In this document: positions 17,601-51,792 of the stretch, in pieces
How positions within the stretch are numbered: position 1 is the first letter of the stretch
How the letters are laid out: every line of letters starts with the position of its first letter
From: Methanotrichaceae archaeon
GTDB taxonomy: Archaea > Halobacteriota > Methanosarcinia > Methanotrichales > Methanotrichaceae
DNA length: 64,000 nucleotides
Assembly (NCBI GenBank): GCA_963754945.1
Contig: CAVWIG010000015.1
Span: forward strand, 1 to 64,000
Direction: 5' to 3'
Made by a program: the position numbers and the translations under genes
Notes under the pieces: model-generated
The model's database searches: none
What the model was told of the DNA's origin: nothing
The model's input: the letters and a program-made list of their open reading frames with translations, nothing else

Positions 17601-18871
17601 GGCAGTGTAACGATTTTTCTGTACTTTGATAATAAGAATGATTATCGGCCCTGTATCCTATCCAATCTTGAGAAAAGGAGGACACAGGACCATGATACCC
17701 ATAGCACTCTTGGAAGATTACCTTATCGATCAGGAAGATGGACTAAAGAAGCTTCTGACCTGGTTCTTGAACCTTGTAATGCAGCTAGAAGCGGCGCAAC
17801 AGGCAGATGCAGAACCGTATCAGAGAGTCGAATCCCGAAAGGCACATAGGAATGGCTACAAGGAAAGATCTCTGAAGACGCGAGTTGGAGAGCTCCGACT
17901 CAAGAAACCTCAATTCCGTGAAATTTCCTTCGAAACCAAGGTGTTCGACAGATTTTCGCGCGTAGAGAAGGCTTTGGTCAACGCTGTACTCGAATCGTAT
18001 CTCCAGGGGGTTTCAACCAGGAGAATCCAAGATATTGTCTCTCGATTTGGCATCGAGAATTTATCTGCCTCTAGCGTTTCCAGGATATCCAAAGAGCTTG
18101 ACGAGAAGGTAGAAGAATTCCTGAAGAAACCTATCGAACGTCCTATTCCTTATCTTTATGTAGATGCAAGCTACTTCAAAGTAAGAACAGAATCAAGATA
18201 TGTTACCAAAGCTTTCATGATCGTCACAGGTGTTAGAGATGACGGTTATCGCGAGATACTTGGCGCAAGAATAGCTGACAGTGAAGATGAACTCTTCTGG
18301 TCGGGATTATTTCAAGATCTGGCGGATCGTGGGTTGTCCGGAGTAAAGCTCGTGATATCAGATGGTCATAAGGGAATCCAGAAAGCGGTTGAGAAATCAT
18401 TTCTTGGTGCTTCATGGCAAATGTGTCACGTTCACTTTTCAAGAGCGGTCTTGAGAAACGTTGCCAAGAAGTATCATAAGGAGATCGCCGATAAGATCAA
18501 GATCGCTCTGGAAGACGAAATCAAGATACAGGACTTAGCGAAAGAATTGAGGGAAAGAGGTTATGCGAAATCTGCTGACACTATCGACCGCTTCAGATTC
18601 AGTCTGTGGAATTACAGGGCATTCCCCAGAGGTCACTGGAGAAGGATTCGGACTACAAACGGGCTGGAGAGGATCAACAAGGAGCTGAAAAGAAGATCCA
18701 GGGTAGTCGGTGCCTTCCCAAGTGAGAGCTCGTTCATGAGGTTAGGGGTTTCGATCCTCATCGATATCAACGAAGAATGGCTGACCGCTAAAAAGTATTT
18801 ATCTATGGATGCTGATTGAGTATGTTGGGATACAGGGCAACTCCAAATTACAGAAATCTCGGCACACTACC
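17601..18871 (+). mobile_element. IS256-family element, copy 1 (no TSD; flanking deletion)
   Basis: IR GGCAGTGTAACGATTTTTCTGTA / TACAGAAATCTCGGCACACTACC; same as the copies at 45222 and 49340. Confidence 0.93.
17626..18819 (+). CDS. IS256-family transposase (likely start 17692)
   Basis: RNGYKER, YLQGVSTR, YVDASY, ISDGHKG, WQMCHVHF and RTTNGLERINKELKRR motifs. Confidence 0.94.
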   Translation: MIIRMIIGPVSYPILRKGGHRTMIPIALLEDYLIDQEDGLKKLLTWFLNLVMQLEAAQQADAEPYQRVESRKAHRNGYKERSLKTRVGELRLKKPQFREISFETKVFDRFSRVEKALVNAVLESYLQGVSTRRIQDIVSRFGIENLSASSVSRISKELDEKVEEFLKKPIERPIPYLYVDASYFKVRTESRYVTKAFMIVTGVRDDGYREILGARIADSEDELFWSGLFQDLADRGLSGVKLVISDGHKGIQKAVEKSFLGASWQMCHVHFSRAVLRNVAKKYHKEIADKIKIALEDEIKIQDLAKELRERGYAKSADTIDRFRFSLWNYRAFPRGHWRRIRTTNGLERINKELKRRSRVVGAFPSESSFMRLGVSILIDINEEWLTAKKYLSMDAD

Positions 18872-42769: not shown

Positions 42770-43003
42770 GATGCTGTTCAATTCGATTGATTCTCTCATT
42801 TTGGAATGACGCATTTCTTCAGAAGCTGCCCCAATTCTGTCTGCCAGAGCGTCATCCTGACCAATCTCATCCAGGATCTCTGAAAGTTTCCGTTTGGCTG
42901 GGAAGTTCTGCATAATAACCTCCGAAAAGCTCTGATTCTCACCTTTTCGACTATTCAGCCTGTTATAAGCCTCTTCTGTTATGGTTATTGTCTTGGTTGA
43001 CAT
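42728..43003 (-). CDS. VapB-like antitoxin (DUF217 type), no cognate toxin seen
   Basis: MSTKTITITEEAYNRL.SRK.ENQSFSEVI. Confidence 0.8.
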   Translation of the reverse strand: MSTKTITITEEAYNRLNSRKGENQSFSEVIMQNFPAKRKLSEILDEIGQDDALADRIGAASEEMRHSKMRESIELNSISRLIAALFPRSLL

Positions 43004-43269
43004 GCTTGAACATACGTGTAGGTGCTTGAATTCATTTAGATCTTCAGGCACCATGTCCGTAATTTCGATTCAGGCCGAGCCAGTTTAATTACTGTTCTGT
43101 TCTTTTTCAACGCTCACAAGCAAGCTGCTTAATGCATTTTTGTCTAACGGACATTGAGGCAGGCTAAGCTGAGTTACAGAGAGCGCGAATAATCACTTAC
43201 AATGTCTTCAATTGAAGTTCCACCATACTATCGAAGGGCTTATAACCGCAGCCTATAATTGTAGAGACT

Positions 43270-43704
43270 ATGGGGATTTGTACAAGGCATGCGATTTTGT
43301 TTCTGGCGGTCATGTTATCCGCCTTCATCTGTCTTCCTCACGCTAAAAGCTGTGGAGGGTCTTGTGCAGTCAGCGGAGGTTCTTCTTACGACTTCATGGG
43401 CGACCCAGCAGTCAACATTGACATGCCCAGCTATGATGAGTTTGCGAGAGACAACCTCGGCAACCATCAAACGACATTACCTGCGAAATCTCTCTCGCGG
43501 GAGATTCTTTCAAATAACAATTCATCCTTTAACCAAACCAACAAAGGCAATGTAAGTCAGAACAGCTCTGCAGTCAGCCGTGTAATCGATAGCCCAGTAA
43601 ACACGACATCCGATAACACGCCGGTTAAATTGGGAGCCTTAGGCATGCAGGACAAGAGACTATCAACTCTGGCTCTTACTACTTTCAATAACAATATGTT
43701 CTAG
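43270..43704 (+). CDS. secreted hypothetical protein
   Basis: Signal-like N-terminus followed by CGGSC. Confidence 0.7.
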   Translation: MGICTRHAILFLAVMLSAFICLPHAKSCGGSCAVSGGSSYDFMGDPAVNIDMPSYDEFARDNLGNHQTTLPAKSLSREILSNNNSSFNQTNKGNVSQNSSAVSRVIDSPVNTTSDNTPVKLGALGMQDKRLSTLALTTFNNNMF

Positions 43705-43793
43705 GCGGAATTCCTGGTGAAGCTGAAGGGTGATTTTAAACCATCCAATCACCTTTAGCGAGATTTTCTTCTATACACTGTAGAAGTCCAATT

Positions 43794-44004
43794 TGCTGGA
43801 CCTCATCCTGGTTTCGCGGACCCTTTTGGCTTACTTCCGGGGTTCGGAGGTACATAATGAACTTTTGCATGAAAAGTCAATAGTCTTCACTCCAAGGATA
43901 TTCTATTCCCGAGTCCGACCACGCACTGGTGGTGGCTGAGTTCGAGCTGCCAGAGTCAAGAATAAATGGGCCATAGGATCGCGGCTGCAGGTGCTGAAGG
44001 ATTC
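43794..44004 (+). repeat. degenerate copy 2 of the EEP gene 3' end
   Basis: Aligns with about 42519-42729 (GTCTTCACTCCAAGGATATTCTAT etc.). Confidence 0.9.
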
Positions 44005-44106
44005 GAACTATGCAGAAGACCTTCAATCGAGCCATGCATAGGCATCCTTACCTGGATTTTATCAAACTTCAGAGTGCCTGCCTTAAAATCGATTTAATGG
44101 GCTGGA

Positions 44107-44441
44107 CTAAAGCTTCAAACAAACATCCAGGGCCTTGTTAACTTCGGCCCTCAAGGATTTATCGGCTGTCCCAAGCAGACCCACTATAAAATGAGTCTTT
44201 ATTGTTGCTATTTTATTTAACTTTATGACCGAATTCCACTTAAGGCCAGACTCATCAAAAGGAGATGTACCTCTCGTTATAAGACATCACTAGGAGCGGG
44301 GATTACGGGAACCCTCGATGAAATGTAGGCGATTGTTGTCTCATTTTCTATGCTATCTTCATAGAGAATCAACGCTGGCCTCCGCTTCACTGTGCTGAGG
44401 TCGGAATTTGGAAAAGGAACGAGTACGATATCTCCCTTCAT
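44107..44441 (-). pseudogene. PemK/MazF-family toxin, frameshifted near 44282 (absent from the ORF track)
   Basis: MKGDIVLVPFPNSDLSTVKRRPALIL...; other frame ITRGTSPFDESGLKWNSVIKLNKIATI... Confidence 0.82.
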
Positions 44442-44620
44442 CGGTATCGGACTTTCAGATCATCGTCCTTATAAATATCGGGTTCACTCGCTAAAAAGTC
44501 GTGTAGTGATATCTCCGAGATCTTCATGAGTGCATCGGTAATCTTCCTTTCGTCTCCTGGCTCTTCCAGGTCGTAAGGGAGATCATCCGGCGCAGTCCTG
44601 CTCTCTAGACTCTCACACAT
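44438..44620 (-). CDS. putative antitoxin of the PemK/MazF pair
   Basis: Acidic 60 aa ending SEISLHDFLASEPDIYKDDDLKVRYR; ATGA overlap with the toxin. Confidence 0.72.
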   Translation of the reverse strand: MCESLESRTAPDDLPYDLEEPGDERKITDALMKISEISLHDFLASEPDIYKDDDLKVRYR

Positions 44621-44690
44621 AGATATTACCTTCAGGTTCTTGCTATTTAAACACTGGGAAAAGACCAAATGAGGCTGATTCGCTACCACG

Positions 44691-44951
44691 TGAGGAACAC
44701 GGAAACATGGACTTGGCCACGCGGGTAATGTACCAACGGAGCGCAACATCCCCGAGCCTGCCAGGTATTTGTTCCTGCACAGCGGTAAGGGGAAGATGCT
44801 GGACCACATACTGGTCTCCCGTTACCTTGCTGGCCTACTTCAGGGGGCTCGGATGTCATAAGGAGCTGCTTCACGACGAGTCGATAGTCTTCACTCCAAA
44901 GGATATTCTATCCCGAGTCCGACCACGCCCCAGTGTTGCGGAATTCGAGCT
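44691..44951 (+). repeat. degenerate copy 3 of the EEP gene 3' end
   Basis: Aligns with about 42411-42672 (GGAAACATGGACTT...CCAACGGAGCGCAACATCCC...GACCACGCCCC). Confidence 0.9.
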
Positions 44952-44963
44952 AACCTGCATGGA

Positions 44964-45221
44964 TTACCACCAATCCATCTTAAAGAATGCATAAACGCCT
45001 AGAACCATGAGGAAACATATTAGGAAAATAACATCTGATATGTTTAATGGAAAACCATCGCCTTGTTTCGAAAGGGCCGAGAGATTGACACCAAGTATTC
45101 CTCCAATTACTGCCGGAATGATAGCAAGACATGTAATGGCGGCGATTTTTTTCATGATTCTGTTCGTGTCATAGGAAACATTATTTGTATGCAATTCTAT
45201 TAAGGATGCGAGGTCTTCCTT
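44964..45221 (-). pseudogene. C-terminal (TM, GVN motif) fragment of the CorA-family fusion gene
   Basis: KEDLASLIELHTNNVSYDTNRIMKKIAAITCLAIIPAVIGGILGVNL. Confidence 0.85.
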
Positions 45222-46492
45222 GGCAGTGTAACGATTTTTCTGTACTTTGATAATAAGAATGATTATCGGCCCTGTATCCTATCCAATCTTGAGAAAAGGA
45301 GGACACAGGACCATGATACCCATAGCACTCTTGGAAGATTACCTTATCGATCAGGAAGATGGACTAAAGAAGCTTCTGACCTGGTTCTTGAACCTTGTAA
45401 TGCAGCTAGAAGCGGCGCAACAGGCAGATGCAGAACCGTATCAGAGAGTCGAATCCCGAAAGGCACATAGGAATGGCTACAAGGAAAGATCTCTGAAGAC
45501 GCGAGTTGGAGAGCTCCGACTCAAGAAACCTCAATTCCGTGAAATTTCCTTCGAAACCAAGGTGTTCGACAGATTTTCGCGCGTAGAGAAGGCTTTGGTC
45601 AACGCTGTACTCGAATCGTATCTCCAGGGGGTTTCAACCAGGAGAATCCAAGATATTGTCTCTCGATTTGGCATCGAGAATTTATCTGCCTCTAGCGTTT
45701 CCAGGATATCCAAAGAGCTTGACGAGAAGGTAGAAGAATTCCTGAAGAAACCTATCGAACGTCCTATTCCTTATCTTTATGTAGATGCAAGCTACTTCAA
45801 AGTAAGAACAGAATCAAGATATGTTACCAAAGCTTTCATGATCGTCACAGGTGTTAGAGATGACGGTTATCGCGAGATACTTGGCGCAAGAATAGCTGAC
45901 AGTGAAGATGAACTCTTCTGGTCGGGATTATTTCAAGATCTGGCGGATCGTGGGTTGTCCGGAGTAAAGCTCGTGATATCAGATGGTCATAAGGGAATCC
46001 AGAAAGCGGTTGAGAAATCATTTCTTGGTGCTTCATGGCAAATGTGTCACGTTCACTTTTCAAGAGCGGTCTTGAGAAACGTTGCCAAGAAGTATCATAA
46101 GGAGATCGCCGATAAGATCAAGATCGCTCTGGAAGACGAAATCAAGATACAGGACTTAGCGAAAGAATTGAGGGAAAGAGGTTATGCGAAATCTGCTGAC
46201 ACTATCGACCGCTTCAGATTCAGTCTGTGGAATTACAGGGCATTCCCCAGAGGTCACTGGAGAAGGATTCGGACTACAAACGGGCTGGAGAGGATCAACA
46301 AGGAGCTGAAAAGAAGATCCAGGGTAGTCGGTGCCTTCCCAAGTGAGAGCTCGTTCATGAGGTTAGGGGTTTCGATCCTCATCGATATCAACGAAGAATG
46401 GCTGACCGCTAAAAAGTATTTATCTATGGATGCTGATTGAGTATGTTGGGATACAGGGCAACTCCAAATTACAGAAATCTCGGCACACTACC
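45222..46492 (+). mobile_element. IS256-family element, copy 2
   Basis: Same as copy 1; flanks TCTTCCTT and CTGAGTTC. Confidence 0.94.
45247..46440 (+). CDS. IS256-family transposase
   Basis: Protein identical to 17626-18819. Confidence 0.94.
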   Translation: MIIRMIIGPVSYPILRKGGHRTMIPIALLEDYLIDQEDGLKKLLTWFLNLVMQLEAAQQADAEPYQRVESRKAHRNGYKERSLKTRVGELRLKKPQFREISFETKVFDRFSRVEKALVNAVLESYLQGVSTRRIQDIVSRFGIENLSASSVSRISKELDEKVEEFLKKPIERPIPYLYVDASYFKVRTESRYVTKAFMIVTGVRDDGYREILGARIADSEDELFWSGLFQDLADRGLSGVKLVISDGHKGIQKAVEKSFLGASWQMCHVHFSRAVLRNVAKKYHKEIADKIKIALEDEIKIQDLAKELRERGYAKSADTIDRFRFSLWNYRAFPRGHWRRIRTTNGLERINKELKRRSRVVGAFPSESSFMRLGVSILIDINEEWLTAKKYLSMDAD

Positions 46493-47589
46493 CTGAGTTC
46501 AGCGCAAATAAGATATTCAGTGACGACTTGATGATTGCTCTTGCAGCAATTCTAGCCTTCGTCGTGATTCTTCCGTCACAGCATTTTCTTACATTCTCTC
46601 CGGCAATGGAAGCAATCTTTGAAAGTCTTTACTACCCAATCATTGCTGCATTTGTTGCAGAATACGTTTCGAAGTTTTATATAGCCGAATCGAAGAGGAC
46701 TTTCATCACAAATCCTTGGAAGATCCTTGATCTTCTCATTATCATTCTTGCATTATCCGATTTCTTGAATTCGATTCCAACCATCCCTTATTTGTCGGAT
46801 TATCAAATTGATTCGCCTATGTTGCGATTGTTACGGGTACCTCGTCCCCTTTTCGGACTCATTTCTGCAACTATCGCATCTACACGCAACAAAAAGCCTC
46901 CTGATACAATTGAGCCGCCAGCATCTAAGCTACAGATCTCAACGCTCGAAATTGACAAACAAGGCAAAAAGGTTGTCAGAAGGTGCTCAATGGGAGAGTC
47001 GTGTTGCATGTTTGCGAGAGAAGAACATCCGCGTTGGTTTGACCTCCATCTCAATACTGAAATGGAACCCGACAAAACAAAGGCAAAAATTGTCAGAAAG
47101 TGTTCTGTAGAAGAGTCGTGCTATCCTATAACGAGTGATGGACAACCACGTTGGATTGATCTTCAACTTATTACCGAAATAGATCTCGATCGTATCGCAA
47201 GCTAATAACTATTTCTCGCGAAGACATCGACAAAAAGCTGGTTAAAAGGTCAATTCCAAGGATAGACCATATTGATGGTATCTCAACTCCAACAATATTC
47301 TTATCGGATCTCCAATTCAATCCACCTGATCATAAGTTTAATTCAAATGAACCTAATGATTCGGACCTCAATATTACTATAAACAATATGCTGATAGTTT
47401 GCAAAAATAACAACATAATCACTTTAAGTAAACTAAGAAGCAAACTATTTGACGAAATATGCAAGCCACCTGAATCTAACCTGTTACCACTAAAAGAGGA
47501 AACCTTCGCGGTTGGTGTTTTGTATTCCATACTAAACCCTCATGATTCGTTGACTCATACATGGAGCATGAGAAACCTGATTGCCTCAT

Positions 47590-47760
47590 CTAACCTTAAT
47601 ATGGTTGATATGGGCAGTGAAGGCTGTTTTATTTTTGGGACCACGATCCTGTAATCTAAACTAGCCATCAAACCGCTCGCATACATGGATGCGTCTTTGA
47701 ACGCGTATGGGAAAATGTCCCTACGAGGGTTTAAGGATCTGCCCATATCAGGCCAGGTTA
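47590..47760 (+). ncRNA. putative IS110 bridge RNA
   Basis: 12-bp stem 47606-17/47739-50 encloses ATGGGAAA and GAGGGTTT, which match the element's predicted circle junction. Confidence 0.6.
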
Positions 47761-47764
47761 AAAT

Positions 47765-49012
47765 ATGGAGCAGCAAAGGAATAAAGTTTGCGGAGTTGAC
47801 ATCCACAAGAGATTTCTTGTTGCCACAATCCTCACACGAGACGGAACCAAACTGCAGAAGCGGTTTGAGACTAACATCGATGATCTATTGAATTTCAGAG
47901 ATTGGGTCATCAGGGAAAATTGTGATTGTGTGGCTATTGAGTCGACTGGAGTCTATTGGTATCCAGTTCATGCCGTTCTAGAAAATAAGGTCGAGCTGAT
48001 ATTGGCTAATGCACATCAGATCAAACATACTCCCGGCAGAAAGACGGATGCTTTAGATTCAGAATGGATCGCAGAGGTTGCTCTCAACAATCAGATTGAT
48101 CCATCGAGGATATTACCGAAAGAAGATCGAGAGCTTAGAAGATTGACACGAACAAGAGAAAGTCTAGTCAAAATCAGATCTCAGATGAAGAACCAAGTTC
48201 ACCAAGGACTGGAATCATGTAGCATAAAGCTCTCTTCCGTTCTATCGGACAGCTTTGGCAAATCAGGGAGATATATCCTGGACAGCTTGATCAAGGGAAA
48301 GAACATCGATGAGGTTATTGCTGGAATTCCTTCGAAGAGGGTCAGAAATAATGGTGATCAGATACGAGCGGCAATTAAAACCGGTCTAGACCAAATCCAA
48401 GTATTTCTTATCCAATCTCATCTGGACACCATTGACTGCTTAACGCAAAAGCTCGATGATATCGATCTTGAGATAAAGCAAAGGGTCTCCGGAAGAACAG
48501 AAGATTTGAAGATCGCCATGTCTGTACCAGGTATAGGATTCACAGCGGCTACAACTATTCTAGCAGAGATAGGGAATTACAGGGACTTCAGTACTCCCGA
48601 TAAACTTGCTGCTTGGTGTGGATTAGTCCCCAGTGTGTACCAATCGGCAGACAAGCTCATTACAGGTAGCATTACGAAACAAGGTTCAAAGCACATCCGT
48701 TGGATACTCGTCCAGGTTGCTCAAGCCGCAGCCAAAAAGAAAGGGTCGAAGCTTAGGAAGTTCTTTCTCAGGGTTAAGGCCAGAAAAGGGCATAACGTGG
48801 CGATCGTGGCTTTAGCCAGAAAGATCCTCTGCATTTTGTATCATCTTCTAATGAACCAGGAAATTTATCAAGAAGATGGGGCGGAGAAATCAAGAACATC
48901 TAGGATCGATTGGTCTTCCTCGACAACTGGTAAGATGAGTCTCCAAACCATGATTGAGATCATTGCCAAAGCAGGTTATGAGGTGAAGAAAATTGAACGA
49001 GATGGGGTTTAG
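47765..49012 (+). CDS. IS110-family DEDD recombinase/transposase
   Basis: GVDIHK, IESTGVYW, KTDALDSEWIA, SVPGIG, GLVPSVYQSA and VALARK motifs. Confidence 0.95.
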   Translation: MEQQRNKVCGVDIHKRFLVATILTRDGTKLQKRFETNIDDLLNFRDWVIRENCDCVAIESTGVYWYPVHAVLENKVELILANAHQIKHTPGRKTDALDSEWIAEVALNNQIDPSRILPKEDRELRRLTRTRESLVKIRSQMKNQVHQGLESCSIKLSSVLSDSFGKSGRYILDSLIKGKNIDEVIAGIPSKRVRNNGDQIRAAIKTGLDQIQVFLIQSHLDTIDCLTQKLDDIDLEIKQRVSGRTEDLKIAMSVPGIGFTAATTILAEIGNYRDFSTPDKLAAWCGLVPSVYQSADKLITGSITKQGSKHIRWILVQVAQAAAKKKGSKLRKFFLRVKARKGHNVAIVALARKILCILYHLLMNQEIYQEDGAEKSRTSRIDWSSSTTGKMSLQTMIEIIAKAGYEVKKIERDGV

Positions 49013-49339
49013 GTCCCCCCTTCTCGGTTTTTGAAGGTTTCTCATGGGAAATCAAAAAATGAGCCACTACTACGAGATCATCCAACTCATAAAAAATGAG
49101 TTTGAGGAAGATAATCTGGAAAAGACATCACCTACCTTCCTTAAAGATGCCTTTCACTTAAAGGAAGAGATTCAAAAGGTTAATAGCAGCCTTTGGCATT
49201 TTCACCAAGTTGTACGTCAAATAAAAGAGCATAAGATCGGAACTACATTTGACTTGAAAATAAAAGACAACAGATATTTTGATGATCTTCATGAAGATTC
49301 AGATTTCATGCTAAAAAGCATTCAAAATATCAAGGAAGA

Positions 49340-50610
49340 GGTAGTGTGCCGAGATTTCTGTAATTTGGAGTTGCCCTGTATCCCAACATACTCAATCAGC
49401 ATCCATAGATAAATACTTTTTAGCGGTCAGCCATTCTTCGTTGATATCGATGAGGATCGAAACCCCTAACCTCATGAACGAGCTCTCACTTGGGAAGGCA
49501 CCGACTACCCTGGATCTTCTTTTCAGCTCCTTGTTGATCCTCTCCAGCCCGTTTGTAGTCCGAATCCTTCTCCAGTGACCTCTGGGGAATGCCCTGTAAT
49601 TCCACAGACTGAATCTGAAGCGGTCGATAGTGTCAGCAGATTTCGCATAACCTCTTTCCCTCAATTCTTTCGCTAAGTCCTGTATCTTGATTTCGTCTTC
49701 CAGAGCGATCTTGATCTTATCGGCGATCTCCTTATGATACTTCTTGGCAACGTTTCTCAAGACCGCTCTTGAAAAGTGAACGTGACACATTTGCCATGAA
49801 GCACCAAGAAATGATTTCTCAACCGCTTTCTGGATTCCCTTATGACCATCTGATATCACGAGCTTTACTCCGGACAACCCACGATCCGCCAGATCTTGAA
49901 ATAATCCCGACCAGAAGAGTTCATCTTCACTGTCAGCTATTCTTGCGCCAAGTATCTCGCGATAACCGTCATCTCTAACACCTGTGACGATCATGAAAGC
50001 TTTGGTAACATATCTTGATTCTGTTCTTACTTTGAAGTAGCTTGCATCTACATAAAGATAAGGAATAGGACGTTCGATAGGTTTCTTCAGGAATTCTTCT
50101 ACCTTCTCGTCAAGCTCTTTGGATATCCTGGAAACGCTAGAGGCAGATAAATTCTCGATGCCAAATCGAGAGACAATATCTTGGATTCTCCTGGTTGAAA
50201 CCCCCTGGAGATACGATTCGAGTACAGCGTTGACCAAAGCCTTCTCTACGCGCGAAAATCTGTCGAACACCTTGGTTTCGAAGGAAATTTCACGGAATTG
50301 AGGTTTCTTGAGTCGGAGCTCTCCAACTCGCGTCTTCAGAGATCTTTCCTTGTAGCCATTCCTATGTGCCTTTCGGGATTCGACTCTCTGATACGGTTCT
50401 GCATCTGCCTGTTGCGCCGCTTCTAGCTGCATTACAAGGTTCAAGAACCAGGTCAGAAGCTTCTTTAGTCCATCTTCCTGATCGATAAGGTAATCTTCCA
50501 AGAGTGCTATGGGTATCATGGTCCTGTGTCCTCCTTTTCTCAAGATTGGATAGGATACAGGGCCGATAATCATTCTTATTATCAAAGTACAGAAAAATCG
50601 TTACACTGCC
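49340..50610 (-). mobile_element. IS256-family element, copy 3 (inverted)
   Basis: Reverse complement of copy 2; flanks AAGGAAGA and GAACTCAG. Confidence 0.94.
49392..50585 (-). CDS. IS256-family transposase
   Basis: Protein identical to the other copies. Confidence 0.94.
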   Translation of the reverse strand: MIIRMIIGPVSYPILRKGGHRTMIPIALLEDYLIDQEDGLKKLLTWFLNLVMQLEAAQQADAEPYQRVESRKAHRNGYKERSLKTRVGELRLKKPQFREISFETKVFDRFSRVEKALVNAVLESYLQGVSTRRIQDIVSRFGIENLSASSVSRISKELDEKVEEFLKKPIERPIPYLYVDASYFKVRTESRYVTKAFMIVTGVRDDGYREILGARIADSEDELFWSGLFQDLADRGLSGVKLVISDGHKGIQKAVEKSFLGASWQMCHVHFSRAVLRNVAKKYHKEIADKIKIALEDEIKIQDLAKELRERGYAKSADTIDRFRFSLWNYRAFPRGHWRRIRTTNGLERINKELKRRSRVVGAFPSESSFMRLGVSILIDINEEWLTAKKYLSMDAD

Positions 50611-50709
50611 GAACTCAGCTACTTCATGCAGTTTTTTTTCGATAACCTTACATGCTTTATGTAGCCTTATTTTCCAGGATTCACCTTGCTGAACATCGTC
50701 ATCCTCCAT
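50611..50709 (-). pseudogene. N-terminal fragment of the voltage-sensor/CorA fusion gene
   Basis: MEDDDVQQGESWKIRLHKACKVIEKKLHEVAEF continues in frame as AEFSANKIFSDDLMIALA at 46493 (+). Confidence 0.8.
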
Positions 50710-50916
50710 TTTCAATCCCTCTTGAAAGAGCATCGTTAATCTACTATAAAAACATTGCAAGAGATTGATTCTCCATTGACGGCCAATATGCTATATGGGC
50801 TGGTATTTTCAATGGGCAAACAAATGTTATGGTTCTTAACATTCAATCCAAATAGATAGATATAAATTAAAATTAAAATAGAGCGAAAGGCAAGAGCTTT
50901 GCCAACCTCTGCGATT

Positions 50917-51792
50917 TTATTTCCTGCGTATCATCGTCCCAATCCCTTCGTCCGTCAGCAGCTCCAAGAGAATGGCGTGCGGCTTCCTGCCATCGATGAT
51001 GTGGGCCTTCTCCACTCCGCCCTCCACCGTCCGAACGCAGGCTTCCACCTTGGGGATCATGCCGCCCTTGATAACGCCGTCCTCAACCAGTCGCTCGAAG
51101 TCGGAGACCGGAAACTCGGAGATCACAGTGTTCGGGTCGTTGGGGTCCATCCGGACGCCTTCGACATCCGTTATGGAGATGAACTTCTTGGCGTGCATAG
51201 CAATGGCTATTGCTCCGGCGGCGGTGTCGGCGTTGACATTCAGGTTGTTGCCCTCATCGTCAACGGCAATTGGTGAGATGACAGGGATGTAGCCCTTGCC
51301 AGCGGTGATCATGATGATCTCCGGGTTGACGGACTCCACATCGCCCACCCAGCCCAGGTCCACAGGCTCTCTTCCCTGAATTTTGACTGGCGCCTTCTTC
51401 CTGGCCTTGAGGAACATGCCGTCCTGGCCTGAGAGGCCGATGCCCTTGCCGCCGTATTTGCCGATAAGGGAAACAAGCTCTGCGTTGATGTTGCCCAGAA
51501 GGACCATGCGGGCTATCTGCAGGGTCTCCTTGTCCGTGACCCGCAGGCCGCCCACGAACTCGGCCTTCTTGCCGAACCTCTCCATGGCCTCGGAGATCTC
51601 CGGGCCGCCGCCGTGAACTATTACCGGATGAATGCCGATGTACCTGAGCAGGACGATGTCCTGGATGAAATCCTCCAAGACCGCCTTGTCGGACATGATG
51701 GAGCCACCGATTTTGGCCACCATGACAGAGTCGTAAAACTCGCGAATGTAAGGCAAAGCCTCAATGAGCACCTGTTCTCTCTTGATGGACAC
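50917..51792 (-). CDS. argB: acetylglutamate kinase
   Basis: EALPYI, KIGGS, VHGGGPEI, GLRVTD, NVNADTAA and GGMIPKV motifs. Confidence 0.97.
   Translation of the reverse strand: MSIKREQVLIEALPYIREFYDSVMVAKIGGSIMSDKAVLEDFIQDIVLLRYIGIHPVIVHGGGPEISEAMERFGKKAEFVGGLRVTDKETLQIARMVLLGNINAELVSLIGKYGGKGIGLSGQDGMFLKARKKAPVKIQGREPVDLGWVGDVESVNPEIIMITAGKGYIPVISPIAVDDEGNNLNVNADTAAGAIAIAMHAKKFISITDVEGVRMDPNDPNTVISEFPVSDFERLVEDGVIKGGMIPKVEACVRTVEGGVEKAHIIDGRKPHAILLELLTDEGIGTMIRRK

Follow-up and report, generated by a model that had tools for sequence, protein, structure and literature searches.

A voltage-sensor/CorA fusion gene broken up by insertion sequences in a Methanotrichaceae archaeon, and the family to which it belongs

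A stretch of 64,000 nt from contig CAVWIG010000015.1 of a Methanotrichaceae archaeon (assembly GCA_963754945.1), called the window here and used as the frame for all coordinates, carries the displaced pieces of a gene in which a voltage-sensor domain (VSD) is joined to a CorA-type metal channel subunit. The locus is almost certainly the pseudogene of a genuine VSD-CorA fusion encoded as one gene, and the copy in the window is a dead, non-functional gene. The fusion itself is a real family that is intact as one gene in many methanogens and in some bacteria. The best overall explanation, which we regard as probable, combines the destruction of this gene by insertion sequences (IS) with a family mechanism in which a CorA-like pentamer would be gated by voltage.

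One coding sequence in displaced segments

The largest piece of the gene (46501-47202) was used as the query for longer proteins, and the search returned 10 homologs of 476-568 aa, all of which (10/10) are tagged with both PF01544 (CorA) and PF00520 (Ion_trans). The best of these, P0001, is an intact protein of 568 aa that is 77% identical over the VSD piece used as query. Comparison of P0001 with the window by tblastn gave five segments that jointly cover the protein end to end, from residue 1 to residue 568 (Table 1). A preliminary description of the locus, made from its letters only, had proposed a gene shattered by IS elements, the pieces of which rejoin through the target duplications once an extra base is supplied near 47200. 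The five tblastn segments bore out this reconstruction, and the need for the extra base was confirmed by a switch of frame at ~47199, between P0001 residues 267 and 268. The switch lies within the CorA N-domain. The N-domain strands ahead of the switch (..PRWIDLQLITEIDLDRIA) share the VSD frame, and the stop codon at 47203-47205 is therefore a lesion and no gene boundary.

Both parts of the fusion were recognized by profile searches of the pieces. Ion_trans matched the window at 37.8 bits (cut-off 25) over profile positions 7-106 of 241, which correspond to helices S1-S4 only, while CorA matched the C-terminal piece at 38.4 bits (cut-off 27; profile 213-291, E 1.2e-9) and, weakly, the middle piece (15.7 bits, profile 121-211). 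These matches agree with the earlier assignment of the N-terminal helices to a voltage sensor without a pore, having recognizable S2 and S3 and an Arg-periodic S4, and of the remainder to a CorA part with GVN at the signature loop. In the intact homolog P0004, CorA matched residues 195-482 (profile 3-289 of 292, 114.3 bits, E 8.5e-33) and Ion_trans residues 29-142 (profile 7-112 of 241). Among 82 full-length members of the family, the CorA match was present in 82/82 and the Ion_trans match in 76/82. When a profile of the 82 members was compared with the PDB, positions 152-474 aligned to residues 29-351 of CorA from Thermotoga maritima (TmCorA; E 2e-40), and positions ~25-126 aligned to single VSDs of CaV3, NaV and CaV1/2 (E 1e-25 to 1e-13).

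The CorA fold was seen in a model of the homolog P0004, not of the broken window gene. AlphaFold2 modelling of P0004 gave a mean pLDDT of 68.9 with 10 sequences and of 86.4, with a pTM of 0.70, with 82 sequences. In the 82-sequence model, four helices at the N-terminus are followed by a disordered stretch (138-158), then by an alpha/beta domain and a 65-residue helix that runs into transmembrane helix 1 (TM1), with TM2 after it. Foldseek ranked TmCorA and the CorA of Methanocaldococcus jannaschii (MjCorA) at the top for this model (E 1.5e-15 to 7e-12, target TM-score up to 0.77). A complex prediction for the VSD (12-140) with two CorA parts (160-488), made with the 82-row alignment, returned a score of 0.00 and a mark of 0.32, which gives no verdict on the packing of the VSD against the pore.

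Insertion sequences, inversion and IS-free junctions

A single long inverted repeat was found in the region 44000-51500. Its arms, at 45222-46492 and 49340-50610, are 1271 nt long and 100% complementary, and each encodes a 397-aa transposase of the Mutator family/IS256 (Pfam PF00872, E 9e-103). The element belongs to the IS256 family by this transposase, by its terminal inverted repeats (ends GGCAGTGT... and GGTAGTGT...) and by its target duplication of 8 bp. Both 8-bp duplications are divided between the IS copies and inverted: TCTTCCTT (45214-45221) has its reverse complement AAGGAAGA at 49332-49339, and CTGAGTTC (46493-46500) has its partner GAACTCAG at 50611-50618. Such swapped and inverted duplications indicate that recombination between the inverted IS copies flipped the segment 46493-49339. 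Un-inverting this middle segment predicts the order and the strands of the gene pieces, and the tblastn segments match the prediction exactly. Note that the orientation of the middle segment may be the assembler's choice, or may be polymorphic in the population, as the copies that flank it are identical and leave the orientation ambiguous; the IS insertions themselves are certain whatever the orientation. A third copy of the IS256-type element lies within the window at 17601-18871, and the whole genome holds 24 full-length, ~100% identical copies together with partial and 77-83% diverged ones. The 24 near-identical copies point to a recent burst of the element.

An IS110-type element was located inside the flipped segment, with a 415-aa open reading frame (ORF) at 47765-49012 that matched PF01548 and PF02371. 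The DEDD transposase, the lack of long terminal inverted repeats and the short duplication are those of the IS110 family. The ends of the element, CCC...GGGA, and its 2-nt AA duplication were deduced from two mini-elements elsewhere in the genome. Elements of ~75 nt with IS110-like ends were observed at L007:1501-1580 and L008:1501-1580 (contigs C17 and C39 of the same genome) and also at L006 and L009. Their ends are as in the IS110-type element of the window (left CCC[A/T]CATGATTCG..., right ...TTTTCATGGGA), and their flanks are similarly A-rich. They look like miniature, transposase-less derivatives, and they hint at a sequence-specific target, as expected of an IS110-type element. A contig end in the same-genus genome G001 was tried as a further instance of this IS110 and was rejected, since it showed no similarity.

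Independent DNA evidence came from two public sequencing runs, X1 and X2, which hold small shares of the gene (0.13 and 0.05). One X2 contig joins 47533 to 49049 and skips 1515 nt, with a joint that slides by 3, and thus represents an IS110-free allele. The skip of 1515 nt agrees with the spacing in P0001 and with the length of the element plus its 2-nt duplication. The joint first chosen for the excision of the IS110-type element, 47536 to 49049 (1512 nt), leaves one extra codon and gives way to the natural site at 1515 nt. A second X2 contig passes 49339 into 30 letters, 27 of which match the reverse complement of 45184-45213 (by eye), and the three mismatches are all synonymous. This contig gives the junction without IS256 and without the inversion. 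Over 47358-47562, a contig of X1 is identical to the window, and it crosses the left joint of the IS110-type element. The run contigs do not cover the N-terminal joint or the frameshift site, and the loss of a base at ~47199 may be a sequencing error.

The ancestral product was a membrane protein of ~555 aa encoded on the minus strand, consisting of an S1-S4 VSD without a pore, a tether and a complete CorA subunit of the 2-TM-GxN type. In the proposed history, two copies of the currently expanding IS256-type element inserted into this gene, each making an 8-bp duplication, and recombination between the inverted copies flipped its middle; an IS110-type element also entered the gene, and one base was lost at ~47199.

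Table 1. Pieces of the VSD-CorA gene, sensor helices and IS elements, with the window segments matched by P0001 in tblastn
Feature	Position	Strand	Content	P0001 residues and matching segment
Gene piece 1	50611-50709	-	Start codon and residues 1-33 of P0001	1-33: 50709-50611 (-)
Gene piece 2a	46493-47199	+	VSD, tether, first strands of CorA N-domain	32-267: 46495-47199 (+)
S1	~46528-46575			
S2	~46603-46686		Phe 46651, Glu 46660	
S3	~46714-46767		Asp 46729	
S4	~46813-46875		Arg 46825, 46834, 46843	
One-base frameshift and old-frame stop	47199-47205	+	Base absent at ~47199/47200; TAA at 47203-47205	
Gene piece 2b	47199-47536	+	CorA cytoplasmic alpha/beta domain, frame shifted by +1	268-~380: 47199-47536 (+), frame shifted by one
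IS110-type element and 2-nt AA duplication	47537-49051	+	CCC...GGGA 47537-49049; transposase 47765-49012	
Gene piece 3	49052-49339	+	CorA helical region and stalk (CorA profile 121-211)	381-~485: 49053-49339 (+)
IS256/Mutator-type copy A	45222-46492	+	Transposase 45247-46440	
IS256/Mutator-type copy B	49340-50610	-	Transposase 49392-50585	
Gene piece 4	44964-45221	-	Stalk end, TM1, GVN loop 45092-45084, TM2, stop codon 44966-44964	484-568: 45221-44967 (-)

A pair of direct repeats of ~140 nt (43794-43934 and 44797-44938, 1004 nt apart, 78-86% identical in three blocks) adjoins the 3' end of the gene downstream, with small ORFs between the repeats. A search of 43000-51500 against Rfam gave no matches.

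Distribution and residue conservation of the family

A scan restricted to one genome per species identified 15 loci. In the archaea they come from six Methanothrix/Methanotrichaceae metagenome-assembled genomes and, further, from Methanocellaceae and Methanocellales, Methanoperedens, Methanomicrobiales, Methanomethylicia and an uncultured archaeon; in the bacteria they come from two Chloroflexi, Moduliflexus and an uncultured bacterium. Single open frames of 468-531 aa are present at 13 of the 15 loci. The preliminary description had held that homologs encoding the two parts as separate genes would speak against a fusion; none of the 15 genome loci is split into VSD and CorA at the domain border, and the two broken loci break elsewhere, L028 by a frameshift inside S4 and L027 by degradation over three frames.

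A profile search of 1.84 billion representatives of 50%-identity clusters returned 5713 proteins at E<=1e-3, mostly ordinary CorAs and channels, and 152 at E<=1e-30. Among the best 150 of these 152, full-length matches (profile <=42 to >=479) number 72. Ten of the 78 shorter matches were read: P0084, P0102 and P0149 continue into unrelated sequence past the match and look like frameshifts, P0112, P0119, P0123, P0156 and P0159 end inside the first CorA strands and look like truncations, and P0091 and P0092 are plain GMN CorAs of ~330 aa, the nearest unfused relatives. No convincing free-standing VSD gene was found among these ten.

Closer to the window genome, the VSD part was found among 40 relatives only in two genomes of the same genus, G001 and G002, and the CorA part alone was matched in ten further genomes of the same family and class. 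The same-genus copies are of the P0004 type and are 37-48% identical to P0001. The G001 copy is split over two contigs, and the G002 copy (G002:C45:37034-38396, L030) is damaged, with ~31 residues missing and a change of frame. Loss of the gene seems to recur (G002, L027, L028), although there may be assembly errors at these loci. G041, the complete chromosome of a Methanothrix sp., and G045 each have two full-length VSD-CorA paralogs and one plain CorA.

The assembly from which the window comes has 54 contigs, 2.97 Mb and a completeness of 87.7%, and no second or intact VSD-CorA copy was found in it. No other PF01544 match above the cut-off and no MgtE (PF01769) was found in this 87.7%-complete genome either. 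The surroundings of the gene were sampled by scanning 47 of the 75 flanking ORFs of the 15 loci against Pfam, hand-picked as the nearest genes. No conserved neighbour emerged among the 47, the matches being to CobN, ABC transporters, PHP, Cache, TPR and NAD synthesis genes, among others, and the surroundings offered no clue to function.

Residue conservation was studied in an alignment of the 82 full-length members, the mean column identity of which is 27%. In working voltage sensors, the S2 Phe and Glu, the S3 Asp and the S4 Arg residues make up the charge-transfer centre and the gating charges. In the VSD-CorA family, the S2 Phe is present in 82/82 members, and the S2 Glu three residues after it in 76/82, with Asp in a further 4. 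The S3 Asp is found in 76/82. The first and the second Arg of S4 (SPxLRLLRxxR) are each found in 76/82; the third occupies the main column in 57/82, and a further 10 members have an Arg in an inserted turn of S4. Seven positions beyond the third Arg, another Arg is present in 66/82. All of these sensor residues are present in the window, where S4 has the pattern R-x-x-R-x-x-R.

The GxN motif retains its Gly in 80/82 members and its Asn in 80/82, and the middle residue is M in 49, E in 11, V in 9, S in 5, Q in 3, I in 2 and T in 1. The canonical GMN is thus found in 49/82, while the clade of the window has GVN and its sister clades have GEN or GSN. The tether is also conserved in length: the post-S4 Arg and the invariant Trp of the CorA N-domain stand 50-55 residues apart in 67/82 members (median 52). 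P0001 is an outlier with 95 residues, nearly double, because of a tandem duplication of 41 codons that comprises the first hairpin of the CorA N-domain (~46954-47063 and ~47071-47180 in the window, ~70% identical DNA). This duplication is common to the window and P0001 and is absent from the other 80 aligned members.

In TmCorA, D89 and D253 form the M1 Mg2+ site, and D253K abolishes closure by intracellular Mg2+, according to PMC12933068. Both positions are fixed in the profile alignment to TmCorA, since wild-type and D89K/D253K mutant sequences are both part of it. The column aligned to D89 holds Ser in 32/82 members, Glu in 6 and Asp, which is outside the eight residues listed for this column, in at most 2; at the position of D253, hydrophobic residues predominate (I 16, L 13, A 8 and V 7 of 82). 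By this one profile alignment, the M1 sensor pair is not conserved across the 82 members. The pair, at which intracellular Mg2+ governs opening and closing in ordinary CorA, is a trait of the characterized proteins and does not define the superfamily.

Proposed voltage gating of a CorA-type pore and other readings

Intact members of the family would form CorA-like homopentamers, as suggested by homology, in which each subunit carries its own peripheral S1-S4 sensor. The membrane potential would move S4 and so bias the closed/open equilibrium of a Mg2+/transition-metal pore, and voltage would wholly or partly replace the Mg2+ feedback site D89/D253. As the end of S4 and the CorA N-domain are both on the cytoplasmic side, the topology fits the proposed coupling, which could run either through a pull of the tether on the cytoplasmic N-domain or through contact with TM2 inside the membrane. 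The conserved length of the tether argues for the pull. The pLDDT below 50 in this stretch suggests a floppy linker, which favours contact with TM2 inside the membrane. Gating by voltage, its polarity, the coupling route and the ion are what we infer from these features; the conserved residues make us lean, if slightly, towards the view that voltage actually regulates the intact channels.

Several observations weigh against this proposal. S4 is short, and its third Arg, present in 57-67 of the 82 members, is lacking in, for example, P0007. Two prolines are present in S4 of both the window (RVPRP) and P0001 (RIPRP). In the P0004 model, S4 (121-137) has a pLDDT of ~49-67 and the linker (138-158) one below 50, and a floppy linker is a poor transmitter of force, which makes the tether route doubtful. 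Six of the 82 members miss the Ion_trans match at E 0.001. The case for voltage gating is argued from residue conservation, and that for the loss of D89/D253 from a single profile alignment; moreover, the residue aligned to D253 is an Asp in both the window and P0001 (YFDDLHE). Finally, the window copy is itself dead, and the broken copies in G002, L027 and L028 mark the gene as dispensable in some lineages.

Some of the same features could be read to mean that the S1-S4 bundle is a structural relic, serving as an anchor or as an assembly or localization module without sensing voltage, in a channel that is regulated like other CorAs or not at all. S1-S4 bundles that do not sense voltage exist elsewhere, for example in TRP channels, and the charge-poor S4 in comparison with Kv and Nav sensors, its variable third Arg, the prolines in the clade of the window and the low model confidence for S4 would all fit. 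However, an anchor would need none of the residues critical to a sensor, and yet at 27% column identity the S2 Phe, the S2 Glu or Asp (80/82), the S3 Asp and two S4 Arg have been kept, while the acidic pair of the Mg2+ sensor has not, so that some other control is needed. We consider a relic unlikely, if still worth bearing in mind. Far less likely is that the VSD forms a proton path like that of Hv1 and that the protein is a proton-coupled metal transporter like ZntB. A proton path of the Hv1 type requires an Asp in S1, and no conserved acidic residue was seen at mid-S1 when the alignments were read by eye; the Phe plug of S2 is invariant (82/82), and most of the family has the canonical GMN. 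What this reading can draw on are the non-GMN motifs of the window clade (GVN, GEN, GSN) and the stimulation of ZntB by a proton gradient, described in PMC6972854, where the membrane potential is given as the driving force of CorA.

The remaining alternative, that the VSD and CorA parts are separate genes or an assembly chimera and that the stop at 47205 is genuine, is virtually untenable. The two parts do stand in different frames in the window with a stop between them, but the change of frame falls inside the CorA N-domain, the first strands of which continue the VSD frame, and for the family this reading is refuted by the single frames at 13 of the 15 genome loci and in the 72 full-length representatives.

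The VSD-CorA protein shares with the Mg2+/Co2+ channels TmCorA and MjCorA (PF01544) the whole CorA subunit, consisting of the alpha/beta N-domain, long stalk helix, TM1, GxN loop and TM2. Unlike these proteins, it has ~150 extra N-terminal residues, made up of the S1-S4 VSD and the tether, and it differs from TmCorA in the absence of conserved D89/D253 and, in the clade of the window, in the GVN motif. With the VSDs of voltage-gated cation channels (PF00520) it has in common the four helices, the S2 Phe-x-x-Glu, the S3 Asp and an S4 Arg at every third position, whereas it lacks the S4-S5 linker and the S5-P-S6 pore and has fewer gating charges, and its partner pore is, by homology, five-fold and of the non-P-loop kind where theirs is four-fold. 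The placing of an S1-S4 module on a non-canonical effector recalls the phosphatase Ci-VSP, the proton channel Hv1 and the sperm Na+/H+ exchanger SLC9C1, a likeness that in the present case is drawn from sequence. The family differs from those three in that it is prokaryotic (archaea and bacteria), has a metal channel of the CorA type as its effector and places the VSD N-terminal to a cytoplasmic regulatory domain. The zinc transporter ZntB is another member of the 2-TM-GxN superfamily in which the GxN motif is not GMN; unlike the VSD-CorA proteins, it has no VSD. CorA flux is powered by the membrane potential and ZntB transport is stimulated by a proton gradient, as stated in PMC6972854.

Databases already tag these proteins with both Pfam domains, and the JGI name is 'Mg2+ and Co2+ transporter CorA'. 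No description of a VSD-CorA fusion was found in the full-text literature, with subscription journals outside the scope of the search. The term CorA is absent from the VSD reviews PMC13095418 and PMC13661669 by term look-up, and magnesium is absent from PMC13661669 as well. PMC10620092 describes SLC9C1 as the sole transporter known to be under VSD control. The VSD-CorA proteins might be the first case of voltage gating in a channel whose pore is five-fold and of the non-P-loop kind, with five peripheral sensors replacing the Mg2+-feedback sensor, a possibility to which we give somewhat less than an even chance. To our knowledge, the effectors of the well-studied voltage sensors are all four-fold P-loop pores, apart from a phosphatase, a proton path and a single animal exchanger.

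The window shows the destruction of a member of this family by an IS burst that is still under way. It also offers a textbook case of inversion between IS copies, legible from the exchange of their target duplications. The family can easily be tested, because intact genes of ~480 aa exist in cultivable methanogen lineages. If voltage does gate these channels, a VSD would have been recruited in prokaryotes to a class of channel that differs in symmetry and gating from the voltage-gated channels studied so far, and the family would offer a prokaryotic test case for the control of a five-fold pore by S4 through a cytoplasmic regulatory domain. It would also represent a new mode of regulating the uptake of Mg2+ and other metals, by which anaerobes short of energy (Methanothrix, Methanocella and Methanoperedens, for example) could tie divalent-cation uptake directly to the magnitude of their membrane potential.

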